The notes under the pieces were generated by a model. The model was not told where the DNA came from, did no database searches, and saw only the letters and a program-made list of their open reading frames with translations. Below are positions 5,294 to 50,407 of a DNA stretch of 64,000 nt, one piece after another. Positions within the stretch are counted from its first letter, which is position 1. Every line of letters begins with the position of its first letter. This DNA comes from Escherichia coli (GTDB lineage Bacteria > Pseudomonadota > Gammaproteobacteria > Enterobacterales > Enterobacteriaceae). A program made the position numbers and the translations under genes. The stretch lies in the NCBI RefSeq assembly GCF_016026235.1, contig NZ_CP065613.1, one strand, 5' to 3'.

Positions 5294-5772
5294 AATCCGG
5301 GTACTCCGGCACGCTTCTCAGCGAGAAAATAGGCGCGGCTGTTAGCGTGAACATCGTTACTGGCGAGCAGCGCGTCCGGCGTCAGCCAGCGGTAATCGTC
5401 ATGCTGCTCATCCGGCAGTAACAGCTCTTCTTCCGCTACTCTGAAGCGAAAACCGAGCACCACATAGTGAGTGGTGAAATCCGTGCCGGAGAAGTTATCG
5501 TCATAAAAGTGCTGCCAGACACCGTAAAACTGGCCTGCTGTTATCGGCAGACGCAGCCCCAGTTCCGCCATCGTCAGCCGCTCAAATGCGGCTTCCAGCG
5601 TTTCGTCTTTCTGCACGCGCCCTCCCGGCACAAACCAGTAACCCTGCGCCGGGCGGTTGGTTCTTTTGCCAAGCAGAAACTCGCCGCGACTGTTCTCGAC
5701 AATAAAGTCGAGAGAGACAAGCGGTGTGGAGCGCACTACCGTGGCAAAGTCTTCCTGACGTAAAAACATCAT
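5290..5772 (-). CDS. gmm: GDP-mannose mannosyl hydrolase (Nudix)
   Basis: 160 aa; Nudix-like box [23 protein letters not shown]. Confidence 0.88.
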
Positions 5773-6737
5773 TACCCCCGAAAGCGGTCTTGATTCTCAA
5801 GGAACCACTGGTAAGTGCTGGCAAGCCCCGCTTCCAGTGAGATTTCGTGATACCAGCCAAGCTGATGCAGCCGCGTCACATCCAGCAGTTTGCGCGGCGT
5901 GCCATCCGGTTTGCTGGCATCAAAAACTACCCGACCTTTGTAACCCACCACTTTGGCGATGGTTTGCGCCAGCTCACGGATAGTGCAGTCAACGCCCGTG
6001 CCGACGTTAATGTGCGACAGCATCGGCTGGGTGTTCTCCTGCCAGACTTCGTGCGCCAGCTCCATCACATGAATGCTCGCCGCTGCCATATCATCAACGT
6101 GTAGAAATTCGCGCATCGGCGTACCGCTGCCCCACACCACCACGTCCGGCGCATTCTGTGCCGTCGCCTCATGGAAGCGACGCAGCAATGCTGGGATCAC
6201 ATGCGAATTACTCGGGTGGAAGTTGTCGTGTGGCCCGTACAGGTTGGTTGGCATGACTGAGCGGTAATCCCGTCCGTACTGGCGGTTGTATGATTCACAC
6301 AGTTTGATCCCGGCGATTTTGGCAATGGCATAAGGCTCGTTGGTCGGCTCCAGCGTGCCCTGCAACAACTCGCTTTCTGCCATCGGCTGTTTTGCCAGTT
6401 TCGGGTAGATGCAGGACGATCCGAGAAACAGCAGTTTGTTCACGTCGTTCTGATGCGCGGCGTGAATGATGTTGCTCTCAATCATCATGTTCTGGTAGAT
6501 GAAATCTGCCGGATACGTGTTGTTGGCAACAATGCCGCCCACTTTCGCCGCCGCCAGATAGACCTGGTCAATACGTTCGCTGGCAAAGAAATCATGCACC
6601 GCGCGGCTGTCCAGCAGGCTCAGCTCGTCGCGGGTGCGTAATACCAGTTCCACATCACCGCGCTGTTCGAGCTGTCGCCTGATGGCGGAACCGACCATCC
6701 CGCGATGGCCAGCGATAAAAATGCGTTGTTTACTCAT
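5772..6737 (-). CDS. fcl: GDP-L-fucose synthase
   Basis: 321 aa; N-terminal Rossmann motif [13 protein letters not shown] (SDR/epimerase fold). Confidence 0.92.
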
Positions 6738-45127: not shown

Positions 45128-45281
45128 TTTTAGCGACATTATTTTGTTAGCCGGAGATGGCGTTCAGACCCGATCCGGCCACATTATCCCACGCATGGTC
45201 AGCAAACTGACATTATCTCTCCGCCCTGGCAGGCATCAGAAAATCGCTCATACTTTAATCGGTAAACAGCACCTTTAGATG

Positions 45282-46707
45282 TAATGCCAGTCAGTTAAGC
45301 AACTGACTGGCTCTTTTTCGGGGCTGTGGGGTATTTCCAGGGCCTCTCCTTTACCACTCTCGGGAAGGCCCTTCCCCTTCTCGTCGGTAATTTCACAAGT
45401 TGTCCCATACTTGCAAGATCGCGCATCAGCTCCGGTATACGTCCCGGTGAAGCGCCCTGCAATGTCATCAGCATTCTCATCACCATTCCGCATGATTCTG
45501 AGAAACTCAGTTGATTCGGCCAGTAACCTTTCAGATGTTCCGCCATTTTAATCATCTGATATCTCACCAGATTATAAGCCAGTAAGACACCCCACAGCTC
45601 TTGCTCCACAAGCTCCGGCTTTTTACTTCTCAGCGTCAGCCTGCTCAGTTGCATCGTCTGTTTTATCTCCCTGTATCCCAGTTCGATTTCCCAGCGATGA
45701 CTGTACAGATCCGCCATTTCTCCTCCGGGGAAGCGCATGGCGTCCGTCATCGACGTCAGCAGATGGCAGACTTTTCCTTTGCGCGTCACGGTCAGCAGGC
45801 GGGCTGTCACTTCATTTCCCAGTCCCGGCCACTTTTTTCGTGCCTGCGGGCTGGTTTTCAGCTTCACCAGATGATCGCCTTTACCCAGTTTTCTGAGCTC
45901 TTCATATTGCGCTCCCTTTCTGAGAGGTATCATCCAGTGGCGGTGTTCTCCCGCCAGGCTCCAGGCATTTAACAGTCCCAGTGAGTAATAACCTTTATCC
46001 ATTAACGTCAGAGTGTTATCGCCGGTTTGTTCTATAAGTTGCTCAGCAAGCTCATTTTCGCTGTTCTTCATCGTGCCGAAGGCTGCAGCCGTCAGCAGAT
46101 GGCTGGTCAGTTCCATCTGGCAGACCATTTTGACCTGCGGGTAGAGCGCCGGGTTCCCGGCATGTGTCTGGCGGGGGAAGGCTGCATCGTTCTCTGGTGT
46201 ATCCGGTGTGCGCCAGAACACACCATCGATGGCCAGCAGGGTCAGGCCGCACCAGTGCGGATGCGGCGTGGCGTTATGCCAGAGCTGCGCTGTTTTCGTG
46301 AACACGCGGCGGACAGCCTCACTTCCCAGGCGCTGGCGGGCCTGAATAACGGCACTGGGGGCAACGAAGGGGCGATTGCCCGGCAGCATGATGTCCAGGC
46401 GATTCACAATCTGGTGAAGAGGTTCTTTACGCTCAAGCGCCATGCCAACAATACACCAGACCATCATTTCGAGGGGAAGACGGCGCTTGCGTAGCGTTAC
46501 AGTACCTGATTCGGCAAGGCAACGAGAGATGAGTTCGGGGTCGAGGTAATCCCCCAGAGAAGTCAGTGGGTTACGCAGAGAATCGTAACGGGATACCAGA
46601 TCAAGAGCCTGTCCAATGTGCATAAAAAAATCCGGAAACAAGTGAGCGTTTCCGGATTCTTACACAGCCACTGGATCGGTCAACTGATCCTTAACTGATC
46701 GGCATTA
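45282..46707 (-). mobile_element. IS4 insertion sequence, 1426 bp
   Basis: 18-bp imperfect terminal inverted repeats TAATGCCAGTCAGTTAAG / TAATGCCGATCAGTTAAG; 12-bp target-site duplication CACCTTTAGATG at 45270-45281 and 46708-46719; length matches IS4. Confidence 0.93.
45295..46641 (-). CDS. insG: IS4 DDE transposase
   Basis: 448-aa ORF (likely start at [13 protein letters not shown]); DDE motifs [30 protein letters not shown]. Confidence 0.92.
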
Positions 46708-46755
46708 CACCTTTAGATGCTGTTTTCGATACACAATTTCAATCAAGGAGTCATT

Positions 46756-47088
46756 ATGGCTGGTTGGTTTGAACTCAGTAAGAGCAGTGATAATCAGTTC
46801 CGGTTTGTGCTAAAAGCGGGCAATGGTGAGACTATCCTCACCAGCGAGCTGTATACCTCAAAAGCCTCTGCGGAAAAGGGCATCGCGTCGGTGCGTAGCA
46901 ACAGCCCGCAAGAAGAACGCTATGAGAAAAAAACGGCAAGTAACGGCAAATTCTATTTCAATCTGAAAGCCGCTAATCATCAAATTATCGGCTCCAGCCA
47001 GATGTACGCCACCGCGCAATCTCGTGAAACCGGAATTGCCTCCGTTAAAGCCAATGGCACAAGCCAGACGGTGAAAGACAATACGTAA
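46756..47088 (+). CDS. yegP: YegP (UPF0339/DUF1508 tandem-repeat protein)
   Basis: ORF track 46717..47088; start trimmed to MAGWFEL with SD AAGGAG at 46745-46750; two DUF1508-like repeats. Confidence 0.85.
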   Translation: MAGWFELSKSSDNQFRFVLKAGNGETILTSELYTSKASAEKGIASVRSNSPQEERYEKKTASNGKFYFNLKAANHQIIGSSQMYATAQSRETGIASVKANGTSQTVKDNT

Positions 47089-47240
47089 TTACGATGCCGG
47101 GCGTGGGTTGTTGGCGTCCGGCTTTATATCCAAATAACGCTTAGTTATTAATAATTAAGAGTAACCGCCGCCATTAAAATAGTGGGCACTGACGAGCACT
47201 CGTTGTGCTTTCTTTGTTTACCATCCCATACTTATCCTCC

Positions 47241-47252
47241 TGAACATGTTCA
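47241..47252. promoter_or_regulatory. Perfect 12-bp palindrome TGAACATGTTCA, candidate operator upstream of parDE
   Basis: Palindrome sits about 90 bp upstream of the parD start, within a likely promoter region. Confidence 0.35.
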
Positions 47253-47341
47253 TGTGCCAAAATATCTTCTAATACTTTCGTGACGCTATCCGGTTTATGA
47301 CATACACTGATGTAAGATTTTTACTTACAGGCGGGCGTAAA

Positions 47342-47593
47342 ATGGCCAGAACGATGACGGTTGATCTCGGCGATGAGTTGCGTGAATTTATCGAGTCCTT
47401 AATTGAATCCGGCGACTATCGCACCCAAAGCGAAGTGATCCGTGAGTCACTGCGATTACTTCGAGAAAAGCAAGCAGAGTCTCGCCTGCAAGCGTTACGT
47501 GACATGCTCGCAGAAGGGTTGAGTAGTGGTGAAGCTCAGCCGTGGGAAAAGGACGCGTTCTTACGGAAGGTGAAAGCAGGGATAAGGAAATAA
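47342..47593 (+). CDS. parD: ParD-family antitoxin (ribbon-helix-helix)
   Basis: ORF track 47297..47593; likely start at MARTMTV; resembles ParD/COG3609 antitoxins (TQSEVIRESLRLLREKQ); immediately upstream of a ParE-like ORF. Confidence 0.8.
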   Translation: MARTMTVDLGDELREFIESLIESGDYRTQSEVIRESLRLLREKQAESRLQALRDMLAEGLSSGEAQPWEKDAFLRKVKAGIRK

Positions 47594-47594
47594 T

Positions 47595-47891
47595 GTGCGT
47601 ATTATTAAACTCATGCCAAAAGCCAATGAGGATTTAGAAGGCATCTGGTATTACAGCTATCACCATTTCGGCGAACCACAAGCCGACAGATATGTGGAAC
47701 ATCTTTCAGACGTTCTCCAGATTCTGAGTAACAATAATATAGGTACGCCCAGACCTGAATTAGGCGAAGGTATTTTTGTTCTTCCTTTTGAACGCCACGT
47801 CATTTATTTCCTGCAATCACCAGGGGAAATTATCGTCATTCGTATCCTTAACCAAAACCAGAACGCCACCAGACATTTACACTGGAGCTAA
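47595..47891 (+). CDS. parE: ParE-family toxin (RelE/ParE superfamily)
   Basis: 98 aa; GTG start 1 nt after the parD stop, preceded by SD AAGGA; N-terminal EDLEGIWYYS and C-terminal IIVIRILNQNQNATRHL resemble ParE toxins. Confidence 0.8.
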   Translation: MRIIKLMPKANEDLEGIWYYSYHHFGEPQADRYVEHLSDVLQILSNNNIGTPRPELGEGIFVLPFERHVIYFLQSPGEIIVIRILNQNQNATRHLHWS

Positions 47892-47993
47892 ACCCGCCGA
47901 TTGCGCTACAATGCCCGCCCTTAAAGTGGGGGCACTCCCCTAACCGCTTCATCAGGTGAAGCGGATCTGACCTGTCATCAGAACGAGAGAATT

Positions 47994-49355
47994 ATGTTTA
48001 AACCGGAACTCCTTTCCCCGGCGGGAACGCTGAAAAATATGCGTTACGCTTTCGCTTATGGCGCAGATGCTGTTTATGCGGGCCAGCCGCGTTATTCCCT
48101 GCGTGTGCGCAACAACGAATTCAACCACGAAAATCTTCAGCTCGGCATCAATGAAGCCCACGCGCTGGGGAAAAAGTTTTATGTCGTGGTCAACATTGCA
48201 CCGCACAACGCCAAGCTGAAAACCTTTATCCGTGACCTGAAACCGGTGGTGGAAATGGGGCCGGATGCGCTGATTATGTCCGATCCAGGGCTGATTATGC
48301 TGGTGCGTGAGCACTTCCCTGAAATGCCGATCCACCTTTCGGTGCAGGCTAACGCCGTGAACTGGGCGACGGTGAAATTCTGGCAGCAAATGGGCCTGAC
48401 CCGCGTGATCCTCTCTCGCGAGCTGTCGCTGGAAGAGATTGAAGAGATCCGCAATCAGGTGCCGGATATGGAGATCGAGATCTTCGTTCACGGCGCGCTG
48501 TGCATGGCCTACTCCGGTCGCTGCCTGCTCTCTGGCTATATCAACAAGCGCGACCCGAACCAGGGCACCTGCACCAACGCCTGCCGCTGGGAGTACAACG
48601 TCCAGGAAGGGAAAGAAGATGATGTTGGCAACATCGTACACAAGTACGAGCCGATTCCGGTGCAAAATGTTGAGCCGACGCTGGGTATCGGCGCACCAAC
48701 CGACAAAGTGTTTATGATCGAAGAGGCCCAGCGTCCGGGCGAGTATATGACCGCGTTTGAAGATGAGCACGGCACTTACATCATGAACTCGAAAGATCTG
48801 CGCGCCATCGCCCATGTAGAACGCCTGACCAAAATGGGCGTGCATTCGCTGAAAATCGAAGGTCGTACCAAATCTTTCTACTATTGTGCACGCACCGCAC
48901 AGGTTTACCGCAAAGCTATCGATGACGCCGCTGCGGGAAAACCGTTCGATACCAGCCTGCTGGAAACTCTGGAAGGTCTGGCGCATCGTGGCTATACCGA
49001 AGGTTTCCTGCGTCGTCATACTCACGACGATTATCAGAACTACGAATACGGTTATTCAGTTTCTGACCGCCAGCAGTTTGTTGGTGAGTTTACCGGTGAG
49101 CGCAAGGGGGACCTCGCGGCGGTAGCGGTGAAAAATAAATTCTCCGTTGGCGACAGCCTTGAGCTGATGACGCCGCAAGGCAACATTAATTTTACCCTTG
49201 AGCACATGGAAAACGCCAAAGGCGAAGCTATGCCGATAGCACCAGGCGATGGTTATACTGTGTGGCTCCCGGTCCCGCAGGATCTTGAGCTCAATTACGC
49301 GCTGCTGATGCGTAATTTCTCCGGGGAAACCACGCGTAATCCCCACGGTAAGTGA
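47994..49355 (+). CDS. trhP: Peptidase U32-family protein YegQ/TrhP (tRNA hydroxylation)
   Basis: 453 aa; MFKPELLSPAGTLKNMRYAFAYGADAVY...; U32 family, with a Cys-rich segment. Confidence 0.9.
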   Translation: MFKPELLSPAGTLKNMRYAFAYGADAVYAGQPRYSLRVRNNEFNHENLQLGINEAHALGKKFYVVVNIAPHNAKLKTFIRDLKPVVEMGPDALIMSDPGLIMLVREHFPEMPIHLSVQANAVNWATVKFWQQMGLTRVILSRELSLEEIEEIRNQVPDMEIEIFVHGALCMAYSGRCLLSGYINKRDPNQGTCTNACRWEYNVQEGKEDDVGNIVHKYEPIPVQNVEPTLGIGAPTDKVFMIEEAQRPGEYMTAFEDEHGTYIMNSKDLRAIAHVERLTKMGVHSLKIEGRTKSFYYCARTAQVYRKAIDDAAAGKPFDTSLLETLEGLAHRGYTEGFLRRHTHDDYQNYEYGYSVSDRQQFVGEFTGERKGDLAAVAVKNKFSVGDSLELMTPQGNINFTLEHMENAKGEAMPIAPGDGYTVWLPVPQDLELNYALLMRNFSGETTRNPHGK

Positions 49356-49385
49356 TTAATTTCGATTATTTTTCCCGGATGGAAA

Positions 49386-49407
49386 ATTCTTAGAAACCGA
49401 TCACATA
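49386..49407 (+). promoter_or_regulatory. Candidate CRP binding site in the cyaR promoter
   Basis: AATTCTTAGAAACCGATCACAT contains the TCACA half-site centred about 43 nt upstream of the cyaR 5' end; -10 TATCAT at 49428-49433. Confidence 0.4.
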
Positions 49408-49439
49408 CAGCTGCATTTATTAAGGTTATCATCCGTTTC

Positions 49440-49526
49440 GCTGAAAAACATAACCCATAAAATGCTAGCTGTACCAGGAACCACCTCCTTAGCCTGTGTA
49501 ATCTCCCTTACACGGGCTTATTTTTT
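49440..49526 (+). ncRNA. cyaR: CyaR (RyeE) sRNA
   Basis: Sequence GCTGAAAAACATAACCCATAAAATGCTAGCTGTACCAGGAACCACCTCCTTAGCCTGTGTAATCTCCCTTACACGGGCTTATTTTTT matches CyaR as recalled; terminal hairpin plus T6. Confidence 0.9.
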
Positions 49527-49684
49527 ATGCATAAGCCCTATCCCTGGTCACCGTCTTCCATTGACCACATCGATAGAATCTCCCTTCATAGCACGATGCC
49601 TTTCACGTAACGGCATCGTGCTCGCACAGGTTCCGGCTAAGCACAACCAGAACGCGCATGTTTGACGCTTACCAAAAAATATTC

Positions 49685-50002
49685 TCACTCTCCACATTTG
49701 AATGTCAGACGAGCGACGCCATGTAATCCTGCACCTTCTGTCTTCAGGTCAACTATCTGCATTTTTTTGCCCTGAGTAACACAGAAATGGGCTGCATCAT
49801 TTTTTACTATATTTTCTGCACCAGATATTCTGCCCCTGGCTAAAGAAGCTTCGGCTTCGGTGTAGTATTGGTTATCGAGTTTACGCTGAATATTACTTTT
49901 ATATGCAAGACCAAATTTACCGATACTTGTCTCATCATTATGCACAGCACAACCAGACATAATAAAAATACTAATTAATGATATAGCAGCTATCTTTTTC
50001 AT
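49685..50002 (-). CDS. yegR: Small lipoprotein YegR
   Basis: ORF track 49685..50062; start trimmed to MKKIAAISLISIFIMSGC (lipobox). Confidence 0.8.
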   Translation of the reverse strand: MKKIAAISLISIFIMSGCAVHNDETSIGKFGLAYKSNIQRKLDNQYYTEAEASLARGRISGAENIVKNDAAHFCVTQGKKMQIVDLKTEGAGLHGVARLTFKCGE

Positions 50003-50407
50003 CTCACCTTCCCCCATTAAATACCAACGACACTCTCTAGTGTTTAAATATAATAATGGCATGATTATTATAATTGAATAGGATTATAATAAATGTTCTG
50101 TACAACATTTCCTACATAAGTAGGAATTACGGACATTGAGGCCCTTCAGGGTAACTCCATGGGGGCTTTAATATATTATATTGAAGATGCCACTGTTTAG
50201 TTGAATATTAGGTATATGCTCTTTTTTGAAATTTATCGGTGGCAGCCGTTAGTATTCGCTGTCCCCATTGCAAGCTCCTGGTGGTAACCACTGAATCCTC
50301 CATACTTGAACTGACTTTTTATCCTCCGACTTTCATCCTGTTCTGACTCCACCTTTTGTTTTCTGCTCTACACTATCTACAGACCAATCATAAAGGCACA
50401 TACGATC

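Follow-up and report, generated by a model that had tools for sequence, protein, structure and literature searches.

A chromosomal ParD/ParE-type toxin–antitoxin pair between yegP and yegQ of Escherichia coli and its candidate operator

Introduction

The closest solved relatives of the gene pair analysed here are PrpA/PrpT, encoded on plasmid pMBL6842 of Pseudoalteromonas rubra (7YCS/7YCU; PMC7848731, PMC9731233), followed by ParD1/ParE1 of Caulobacter crescentus (3KXE). PrpA footprints on the motif TTTG(T/A)AAT and represses its own operon, and it also sets plasmid copy number through binding to iterons (PMC7848731). The word "gyrase" is absent from the two papers on PrpTA, and the target of PrpT is not given there (PMC7848731, PMC9731233). 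For other toxins of this family, poisoning of DNA gyrase was shown experimentally, namely for ParE2 of V. cholerae (VcParE2), in the context of which a Phe at the position of Trp25 lowered toxicity (bioRxiv 10.1101/2025.07.24.666505), and for ParE of RK2 (Jiang et al. 2002, as cited in PMC7167474). There are also ParE homologues of low activity, such as PaParE1, described as weakly toxic or non-toxic where it is cited in the VcParE2 work (bioRxiv 10.1101/2025.07.24.666505).

Here we describe a parDE pair of this already known kind, located between yegP and yegQ (also named trhP) in a 64-kb stretch of E. coli DNA that was analysed as a whole and is called the window below. The pair is an ordinary one, already annotated as ParD/ParE in RefSeq. 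We consider it probable that it forms a chromosomal type II toxin–antitoxin operon of the ParD(PF03693)/ParE class, which is autorepressed through the inverted repeat TGTAAG-N7-CTTACA and is an old, polymorphic resident of its site. A literature search on the WP accessions of both proteins, and on parDE together with yegP, returned nothing specific to this E. coli pair and no experimental work on it.

Results

Gene arrangement and family assignment

The features of the locus are collected in Table 1. The original prediction had proposed an 83-aa ParD followed, after 1 nt (47594), by a 98-aa ParE that starts at GTG with its own Shine–Dalgarno sequence, and every coordinate of this proposal was confirmed. 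The layout is that of a type II toxin–antitoxin operon, with small, co-oriented neighbours, the antitoxin gene first and cognate families paired, and it would allow the translation of parD and parE to be coupled. Homologous loci retain both genes, separated by 1 nt or overlapping by 14 nt.

Table 1. Features of the parDE locus, with positions in the window
Feature	Position	Strand	Remarks
Presence/absence segment, 780 bp	47123..47902	.	21 unrelated bp in its place in K-12 BW25113
Palindrome TGAACATGTTCA	47241..47252	.	Probably not the ParD operator
Putative -35 GTGACG	47280..47285	+	Read from sequence; 17 nt before the -10
RefSeq/PGAP ParD N-terminal extension, 15 codons	47297..47341	+	98-aa ParD WP_001307279; probably untranslated
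Putative -10 TACACT	47303..47308	+	Directly upstream of the candidate operator
Inverted repeat TGTAAG-N7-CTTACA	47311..47329	.	Best ParD operator candidate, from comparative conservation; overlaps the transcription start predicted at about 47314..47317
parD	47342..47593	+	83-aa ORF; ATG 47342, TAA 47591..47593
parE Shine–Dalgarno AAGGA	47584..47588	+	Inside the end of parD, 6 nt before GTG; read from sequence
parE	47595..47891	+	98-aa ORF; GTG 47595, TAA 47889..47891

Profile searches agree with the ParD/ParE-type assignment that had been made from the letters of the DNA. ParD is placed in PF03693 (CC2985 type; 4.7e-19, model positions 1-76 of 81) and in TIGR02606 (88.4 bits, cutoff 46.2), with weak RHH_1 and NikR N-terminal matches, and ParE in PF05016 (3e-13, residues 4-90 on model positions 1-88 of 89); the NCBIfam models gave no match for ParE. 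ParD aligns from end to end with PrpA, VcParD2 and CcParD1, each solved as a ribbon-helix-helix antitoxin, and is predicted to comprise an N-terminal ribbon-helix-helix DNA-binding domain and a C-terminal toxin-binding part. Its N-terminal stretch MARTMTVDLGDELR, the predicted DNA-contacting strand, is nearly invariant across the 16 loci that were compared for the operator (see below).

The likeness to Caulobacter ParD1/ParE1, initially judged by eye, is recovered in the PDB sequence search, where 3KXE matches ParD at 3.4e-11 and ParE at 4.5e-8. Other matches of ParE are PrpT (1.1e-11), 8C24 (deposited as ParE1, of M. tuberculosis ParDE1; 2.8e-7) and 7R5A (deposited as "Toxin", from the V. cholerae ParD2:ParE2 complex; 2.2e-6). 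The AlphaFold2 model of ParE (pLDDT 89.9) has helices at residues 8-25 and 27-46, followed by three strands. In a Foldseek comparison with the PDB, ranks 1-23 are all ParE-type toxins (TM 0.64-0.87), 22 of them from ParDE or PaaA2-ParE2 complexes and the other being PfiT, and RelE, YoeB and YafQ rank after them (TM 0.5-0.67). The model thus predicts a ParE-type fold, with an N-terminal alpha-hairpin packed on a beta-sheet, that is nearer to ParE structures than to the RNases RelE, YoeB and YafQ.

The RefSeq form of ParD begins at ATG 47297, which falls between the putative -35 and -10 hexamers. As this start lies inside the putative promoter and is not conserved, we prefer the 83-aa form, in agreement with the original prediction, and the RefSeq start is probably 15 codons too long. 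The extension is broken in E. whittamii and Pseudocitrobacter (orthologous loci L005 and L011) by in-frame stop codons upstream of the position of ATG 47342, gene calls at other loci begin with MARTMTVD, and the match of ParD to PrpA (7YCS; 1.9e-27) begins at residue 2.

The cassette (47123..47902) has a GC content of 43.8%, against 54.1% for yegQ, 48.6% for yegP and 51.8% for the window, and so the impression that it is AT-richer than its neighbours is modestly true. The defence-system models of PADLOC gave no match for ParD or ParE at E <= 0.01, the PHROGs matches were to generic antitoxin and unknown-function families only, and a phage collection gave a single partial match. An Rfam scan of positions 46600..48100 at E <= 1 returned zero matches. 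A small ORF or sRNA was sought in 47123..47240, where just one 16-codon minus-strand ORF is present; 5 of its 16 residues differ in E. whittamii (by eye), and it was judged not to be real.

Distribution and history of the cassette

In a BLAST comparison of the yegP-yegQ spacer of K-12 BW25113 (146 bp) with the window, the flanks are 100% identical up to 47122 and again from 47903. The pair is absent from K-12, as had been suspected, and the segment in between is replaced by the 21 bp listed in Table 1. The accompanying view of a small, strain-specific accessory insertion does not hold: the cassette is carried by 1843 of 5426 complete E. coli genomes (34%), the K-12-type empty allele being found in 3182 (59%), and Escherichia whittamii and Pseudocitrobacter have the cassette at the same site. 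Given this frequency and the same site in two other taxa, the cassette is an old, polymorphic resident upstream of yegQ (trhP), and not a recent insertion.

For the K-12-type empty allele, loss of the cassette appears the more likely origin. Local alignment of the 21-bp filler with the cassette, taken whole or as head or tail separately, gave scores no better than those of shuffles (p about 0.5-0.7); as the filler shows no trace of the cassette, the direction of the change in K-12 is read from synteny only. A 30-nt remnant of the parE 3' end persists in one strain whose cassette was replaced by an island.

Both genes are under purifying selection. Relative to E. whittamii, dN/dS is 0.023 for parD and 0.133 for parE; relative to Pseudocitrobacter, where synonymous sites are saturated, dN is 0.05 and 0.14, respectively.

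Promoter and candidate operator

The putative promoter of the operon, GTGACG-N17-TACACT, is also present in E. whittamii and Pseudocitrobacter. Its hexamers agree with the consensus at just 8 of 12 positions, which is why a simple promoter scan did not list it. The inverted repeat that follows the -10 occurs once in the 64-kb window, and GTAAG-N7-CTTAC is found at the matching position in 15 of 16 non-redundant loci, the sixteenth having one mismatch. These loci, whose ParD proteins are 65-99% identical to the one described here, come from Escherichia, Pseudocitrobacter, Buttiauxella, Cedecea, Pantoea, Enterobacter, Rahnella, Rep3 plasmids and a Yersinia prophage. The distance from the repeat to the ParD ATG is 11-19 nt across loci, and the chance expectation for the repeat is ~7e-4 per locus. 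Eleven of the 16 loci have a hexamer of the form TAnACT or TATAGT whose end lies 3-5 nt upstream of the repeat, and in three more CAGAAT or TAAGAT abuts it.

Over the 16 loci, the arms reach an information content of 1.97 bits, compared with 0.96 for the spacer and 0.42 for the flanks, both of which vary freely. Since the loci were anchored on the motif, the 2-bit values of the arms are partly circular, and the evidence proper is the presence and position of the motif. Nucleotide homology between the chromosomal and plasmid cassettes begins at query 180-190 (window 47302-47312), exactly where the -10/operator lies, and extends as far as the parE stop. The comparative data supply a specific 19-bp sequence, TGTAAG-N7-CTTACA, as the best candidate for the ParD operator.

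From these elements a mechanism may be proposed. A weak sigma-70 promoter (47280..47308) would produce a single parD-parE mRNA, on which translation of parE would be coupled to that of parD through the parD stop placed 1 nt before the GTG and the Shine–Dalgarno sequence within parD. Dimers of ParD would bind the inverted repeat via the N-terminal ribbon-helix-helix strand (MARTMTVD) and, because the repeat sits immediately after the -10, would shut off transcription of their own operon. The C-terminal half of ParD would wrap around and neutralise ParE, and once degradation of ParD outpaced its replacement, ParE set free would arrest growth; DNA gyrase, which other ParE toxins were shown to poison, would be the most likely target. 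The binding of ParD to DNA, its protease dependence, the toxicity of ParE and its neutralisation by ParD, as well as gyrase as the target, are here inferred from the family only.

Discussion

Alternative explanations

The pair could be read, as it was originally, as a recent strain-specific ParDE insertion with the palindrome TGAACATGTTCA as its autoregulatory operator, which we regard as very unlikely. The palindrome is exact in position and symmetry, K-12 is without the cassette, and the palindrome is kept in E. coli alleles and in E. whittamii, between which the surrounding stretch 47225..47302 is 92% identical and 47123..47224 75% (Fisher p = 0.003), indicating that something in 47225..47302 is constrained within Escherichia. 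However, neither Pseudocitrobacter nor any of the plasmid, prophage and other-genus loci compared has the palindrome, although the predicted DNA-contacting N-terminus of ParD is the same there; the palindrome also precedes the -10 by ~50 nt and is not part of the segment that the plasmid cassettes share. With its conservation limited to Escherichia, it is probably not the ParD operator, whereas TGTAAG-N7-CTTACA is kept across genera. By itself a palindrome of this kind is weak evidence, because perfect 12-nt palindromes number 21 in the window, where 15.6 are expected, and one arises in 7.5% of the sequences obtained by shuffling the upstream region of 219 nt; the recent-insertion part is opposed by the share of E. 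coli genomes that carry the cassette and by its site in the two other taxa. The palindrome was also considered as a LexA box and rejected, as by eye it reads CTG-N10-TGT and not CTG-N10-CAG. It is most improbable that the inverted repeat, for its part, is an RNA hairpin at the 5' end of the mRNA that controls stability or translation instead of a protein-binding operator. It can fold into a 6-bp stem with a 7-nt loop, but at -3.2 kcal/mol the stem is weak, the arms are invariant in sequence with no compensatory change in the 16 loci, the sole variant (L016) breaks a pair, the expected transcription start is inside the left arm and no Rfam family matches; the absent compensatory changes and the weak stem led us to discard it.

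Two further readings accept the ParD/ParE assignment and concern the role of the pair. Its main function might be regulatory or competitive, either as anti-addiction against the ParDE of IncF/Rep3 plasmids or through ParD acting at other DNA sites, as PrpA does at iterons. We find this unlikely, even with ParD being 90-92% identical to Rep3-adjacent ParDs on two plasmid-like contigs (L007 and L010, one of them from Salmonella), with identical operator arms and cognate ParEs that are just 67-68% identical, with a ParE relative encoded on 1206 plasmids (457 of them Escherichia), and with three TGTAAG/CTTACA half-sites in the ~330 nt upstream of the L007 rep gene. This half-site enrichment is small and overlaps, or is confounded by, unrelated TTACAG repeats, the full repeat is unique in the window, and many E. 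coli IncFIA/FIB ParDE copies are already decayed pseudogenes, leaving little for a chromosomal ParD to compete against. It seems quite improbable, too, that the cassette is an inactive or decaying remnant, or that its ParE acts on something other than gyrase or is non-toxic, with no current phenotype. PrpT, the closest characterised toxin, is without a target in its papers, weakly toxic ParE homologues exist, more than half of the E. coli genomes do without the cassette and related plasmid copies are visibly decaying. Yet neither ORF is broken or flagged as a pseudogene in any of ten genomes taken at even intervals down the ranking, dN/dS is well below 1 for parD and parE, and the operator is kept; in a decaying plasmid copy parD and parE are both frameshifted and one operator arm is mutated, and the chromosomal copy has none of these changes. 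An autorepressed toxin–antitoxin operon, long resident at this site, is the reading that we retain.

Context and significance

The cassette ends 4 nt before a -10-like TACAAT upstream of yegQ/trhP, the -35-like TTTACC of K-12 being replaced, and no terminator was found between the cassette and the TACAAT. Expression of yegQ/trhP, a tRNA-modification gene, might thus be tied to the parDE promoter in a third of the strains. Given the shared operator arms and the 90-92% identity, ParD could also repress Rep3-adjacent cassettes and neutralise their toxins, which would amount to anti-addiction. We put forward such an interaction of the cassette with its surroundings, by plasmid cross-talk or by coupling to yegQ/trhP, as tentative and rather doubtful.

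As the pair is missing from K-12 and common in E. coli, work on K-12 says nothing about this ParDE. In an E. coli pangenome study, gains of ParDE, at the family level, tended to precede quinolone-resistance mutations (PMC10575684), and if gyrase is indeed poisoned by ParE, the presence of the cassette could matter for quinolone tolerance. The value of these results is practical, for annotation and experimental design, and the understanding of toxin–antitoxin systems is unchanged.

Comparison with known systems

The PrpA/PrpT system has the same pairing of a ParE with a PF03693-type ParD and is the best PDB sequence match for both proteins; PrpT is also the best structural match to ParE (TM 0.87, rmsd 1.1), and the N-terminal strands of the antitoxins are near-identical (SRTMTVD in PrpA and ARTMTVD in the ParD described here). 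The PrpA motif and the inverted repeat have the TGTAA core in common, but the PrpA half-site ends in T and that of the repeat in G (TGTAAG), and PrpA protects the -35 together with part of the -10, the repeat being located after the -10. In addition, PrpTA is plasmid-borne and controls copy number via iterons, whereas the present pair is chromosomal with no replicon nearby, and PrpT is only ~31% identical to its ParE.

ParD1/ParE1 of C. crescentus is likewise a chromosomal two-gene ParDE with a ribbon-helix-helix ParD (TM 0.84), and its motifs DL..IW.YS and VIR(I/V)L.Q are also found here, at ~27% identity. VcParE2 (7R5A) has the same toxin fold (TM 0.85), but its key Trp25, which contacts gyrase, is not conserved in the present ParE; in a by-eye alignment this position corresponds to Phe25 of ParE and to a Trp in Caulobacter ParE1. 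The antitoxin of RK2 belongs to a different family, PF09386 (PMC7848731). The PaaR2-PaaA2-ParE2 system of E. coli O157:H7 prophages (5CW7) also occurs in E. coli and shares the ParE fold (TM 0.76), but it is prophage-borne and has three components, with an unrelated antitoxin, a separate regulator and a toxin that is 17% identical to the ParE of the yegP-yegQ locus.

Identity and organization of the ParD/ParE pair

The two small genes in the cassette between yegP and yegQ (window 47123..47902) were proposed, from the sequence alone, to encode a ParD antitoxin and a ParE toxin, and profile searches confirm this identification, with ParD matching Pfam PF03693 (4.7e-19) and NCBIfam TIGR02606 (88.4 bits, cutoff 46.2), and ParE matching Pfam PF05016 (3e-13). 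Among proteins of known structure, sequence matches were found to PrpA/PrpT of Pseudoalteromonas rubra (ParD 1.9e-27, ParE 1.1e-11), Caulobacter ParD1/ParE1 (3.4e-11 and 4.5e-8), M. tuberculosis ParDE1 and V. cholerae ParD2/ParE2. The AlphaFold2 model of ParE (pLDDT 89.9) has ParE-type toxins as all of its top 23 Foldseek matches in the PDB (TM ≤ 0.87), with RelE, YoeB and YafQ ranking below them. The pair thus falls, with good support, into a known toxin–antitoxin family, of which it is an ordinary representative; it is already annotated in RefSeq (WP_001307279, 'ParD family antitoxin', and WP_001220181, 'RelE/ParE family toxin'), and we found no experimental work on it in the literature.

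Re-reading the sequence reproduced the ORF coordinates, the 1-base gap, the Shine-Dalgarno sequence and the palindrome position of the original prediction, and parD and parE form a coupled two-gene operon with a conserved architecture of putative promoter and candidate operator. The GC content is 43.8% in the cassette versus 51.8% in the window.

Features of the parDE cassette and its neighbours (window positions)
Feature	Position	Strand	Description
yegP	46756..47088		neighbour of cassette
Palindrome	47241..47252		TGAACATGTTCA, 12 nt
Putative -35-like	47280..47285	+	GTGACG
Putative -10	47303..47308	+	TACACT
Candidate ParD operator	47311..47329		inverted repeat TGTAAG-N7-CTTACA, conserved across loci
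parD	47342..47593	+	83 aa, ATG 47342 to TAA 47591..47593
parE Shine-Dalgarno	47584..47588	+	AAGGA
parE	47595..47891	+	98 aa, GTG 47595 to TAA 47889..47891; 1 base after parD
yegQ (trhP)	47994..49355		neighbour of cassette

RefSeq starts ParD at ATG 47297 (98 aa). The 83-aa ORF originally called is preferable, since the RefSeq start falls within the putative promoter, between its -35 and -10 elements, the frame matching the extension contains stop codons in Escherichia whittamii and Pseudocitrobacter, and all ParD homologues begin with MARTMTVD. This correction, the candidate operator and the evidence for the age of the cassette at the yegQ site are what the analysis usefully adds.

A conserved candidate operator

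Homologous loci were gathered through relatives of ParE, and those whose ParD is 65–99% identical carry the motif T-GTAAG-N7-CTTAC-A 11–19 nt 5' of the ParD ATG. The inverted repeat is exact in 15 of 16 non-redundant loci, spanning seven genera, Rep3 plasmids and one Yersinia prophage, with a single mismatch in one Buttiauxella locus; about 7e-4 occurrences per locus are expected by chance in the 750-nt search region. A -10-like hexamer, TAnACT or TATAGT, ends 3–5 nt 5' of the repeat in 11 of these loci, and CAGAAT or TAAGAT abuts it in three more. Information content falls from 1.97 bits per position in the arms to 0.96 in the spacer and 0.42 in the flanks, and the absence of compensatory arm changes across loci favours recognition by a protein over an RNA hairpin. 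In these loci the N terminus of ParD hardly varies over MARTMTVDLGDELR, the strand predicted to contact DNA. When the chromosomal cassette is compared with 880 plasmid copies, nucleotide homology runs from 47302..47312 to the parE stop, and therefore the conserved module comprises the -10, candidate operator, parD and parE.

The palindrome TGAACATGTTCA, initially suggested as the operator, lies outside this module and is kept only within Escherichia, which argues against that role. It may have some Escherichia-specific role. Identity between E. coli and E. whittamii reaches 92% over the stretch containing it (47225..47302, 5' of the -10), versus 75% over 47123..47224 (Fisher p = 0.003); the former stretch is under constraint within Escherichia and absent from other genera. 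A terminator-like hairpin also lies on the + strand in the non-coding left portion of the cassette (47194..47218; GAGCAC-TCGTT-GTGCTT followed by TCTTTGTTT). It follows the yegP terminator (47110..47122) as another site of this kind, is kept in E. whittamii and gave no Rfam match.

Distribution and age of the cassette

Among 5426 complete E. coli genomes, with the cassette called at ≥ 80% of the 904-nt spacer, 1843 (34%) have the parDE allele, 3182 (59%) the K-12-type empty spacer and, by subtraction, about 400 (about 7%) other alleles. The expected absence from K-12 was borne out, BW25113 having 21 unrelated bp in place of the 780 bp of 47123..47902. The same site is occupied in E. whittamii (baeR-yegP-parD-parE-yegQ; ParE 95% identical) and in Pseudocitrobacter (baeR-parD-parE-yegQ, without yegP; ParD 92% and ParE 79%; genus assigned from exact BaeR and YegQ matches), and the right junction is homologous across all three. 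Thus, the strain-specific insertion first envisaged is not supported, and the cassette is accessory, neither strain-specific nor recent.

In the comparison with Pseudocitrobacter, both parD and parE have saturated synonymous sites and the dS of yegQ is 0.82, so that the cassette is at least as diverged as yegQ. Both genes are under purifying selection (dN 0.05 for parD and 0.14 for parE against Pseudocitrobacter; dN/dS 0.023 and 0.133 against E. whittamii). E. coli A0 34/86 (NZ_CP120567.1; locus L003 1..2621) has a third allele of the site, in which a PcfJ/DUF1266/DUF4034 island lies on the yegP side, on the opposite strand, and abuts yegQ, with no yegP within 2.5 kb. All that remains of the cassette is its last 30 nt, made up of the final 19 nt of parE with its stop codon and the next 11 nt, indicating that this lineage formerly had the cassette. 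The cassette is most simply read as an old resident of the site that was lost repeatedly, the polarity of the K-12 empty allele being inferred, since its 21-bp filler holds no detectable relic.

ParE relatives are encoded on 1206 plasmids, the best true plasmid copies being 62–65% identical, and ParD is 90–92% identical to ParDs of two plasmid-like contigs with adjacent Rep3 initiators (L007, from Salmonella, and L010). E. coli IncFIA/FIB plasmids carry a copy adjoining RepFIB with frameshifted parD and parE and a left operator arm TGTAAA, a picture of decay by contrast with which the chromosomal copy is not decaying. One example (NZ_CP086619.1, locus L061 3000..3600), about 68% identical in nucleotides, lies beside the RepFIB initiator and a tyrosine recombinase, and many E. 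coli plasmids contain similar copies that are unannotated.

Genomic surroundings

Upstream of yegP, between it and baeR, lies a complete IS4 element (45282..46707, 1426 bp), whose minus-strand ORF (448 aa, listed from TTG at 46641) is the IS4 family transposase of RefSeq. It is flanked by a 12-bp target-site duplication, CACCTTTAGATG (45270..45281 and 46708..46719), and ends 48 nt before the yegP ATG. Of the 12 best-matching genomes listed, only 6 have the element between baeR and yegP; its insertion could affect yegP expression.

A -10-like TACAAT (47907..47912) precedes yegQ, 4 nt past the cassette end. In K-12 (comparison locus L001 3037..3065, against window 47884..47912) a -35-like TTTACC lies 17 nt 5' of it, where the cassette allele has the parE 3' sequence GGAGCT. 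With this site replaced, and no terminator-like site found between parE and yegQ in a sequence scan, transcription from the parDE promoter may continue into yegQ in strains that carry the cassette. Both here and in strain E2865, about 330 nt separate yegQ from yegR (49356..49684 in the window), versus about 960 nt in K-12, where the gap holds ogrK and a P2 gpD remnant; this prophage remnant is thus missing here. Around yegR the sequence is markedly rich in A+T (GC 33–38% over 49850..50300).

Proposed mechanism and comparison with known systems

By analogy with the family, dimers of ParD would act at the inverted repeat to repress the promoter, ParE would be neutralised by the C-terminus of ParD, and free ParE would poison gyrase. 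The last is the weakest step of the proposal: PMC7848731 and PMC9731233 give no target for PrpT, and, in an alignment by eye, the position of Trp25, the key residue of V. cholerae ParE2, appears to be taken here by Phe, which in the VcParE2 context lowered toxicity (bioRxiv 10.1101/2025.07.24.666505).

In L007, repeated TTACAG(C) units lie 5' of the Rep3 initiator gene (5719..6100), with three TGTAAG/CTTACA half-sites (5810, 5934 and 6036), a small and unproven enrichment; the arrangement recalls the binding of PrpA to iterons. The PrpA footprint on its own promoter has the motif TTTG(T/A)AAT, sharing a TGTAA core with the repeat described here (PMC7848731), and the PrpA strand SRTMTVD is near-identical to the N-terminal strand of this ParD.
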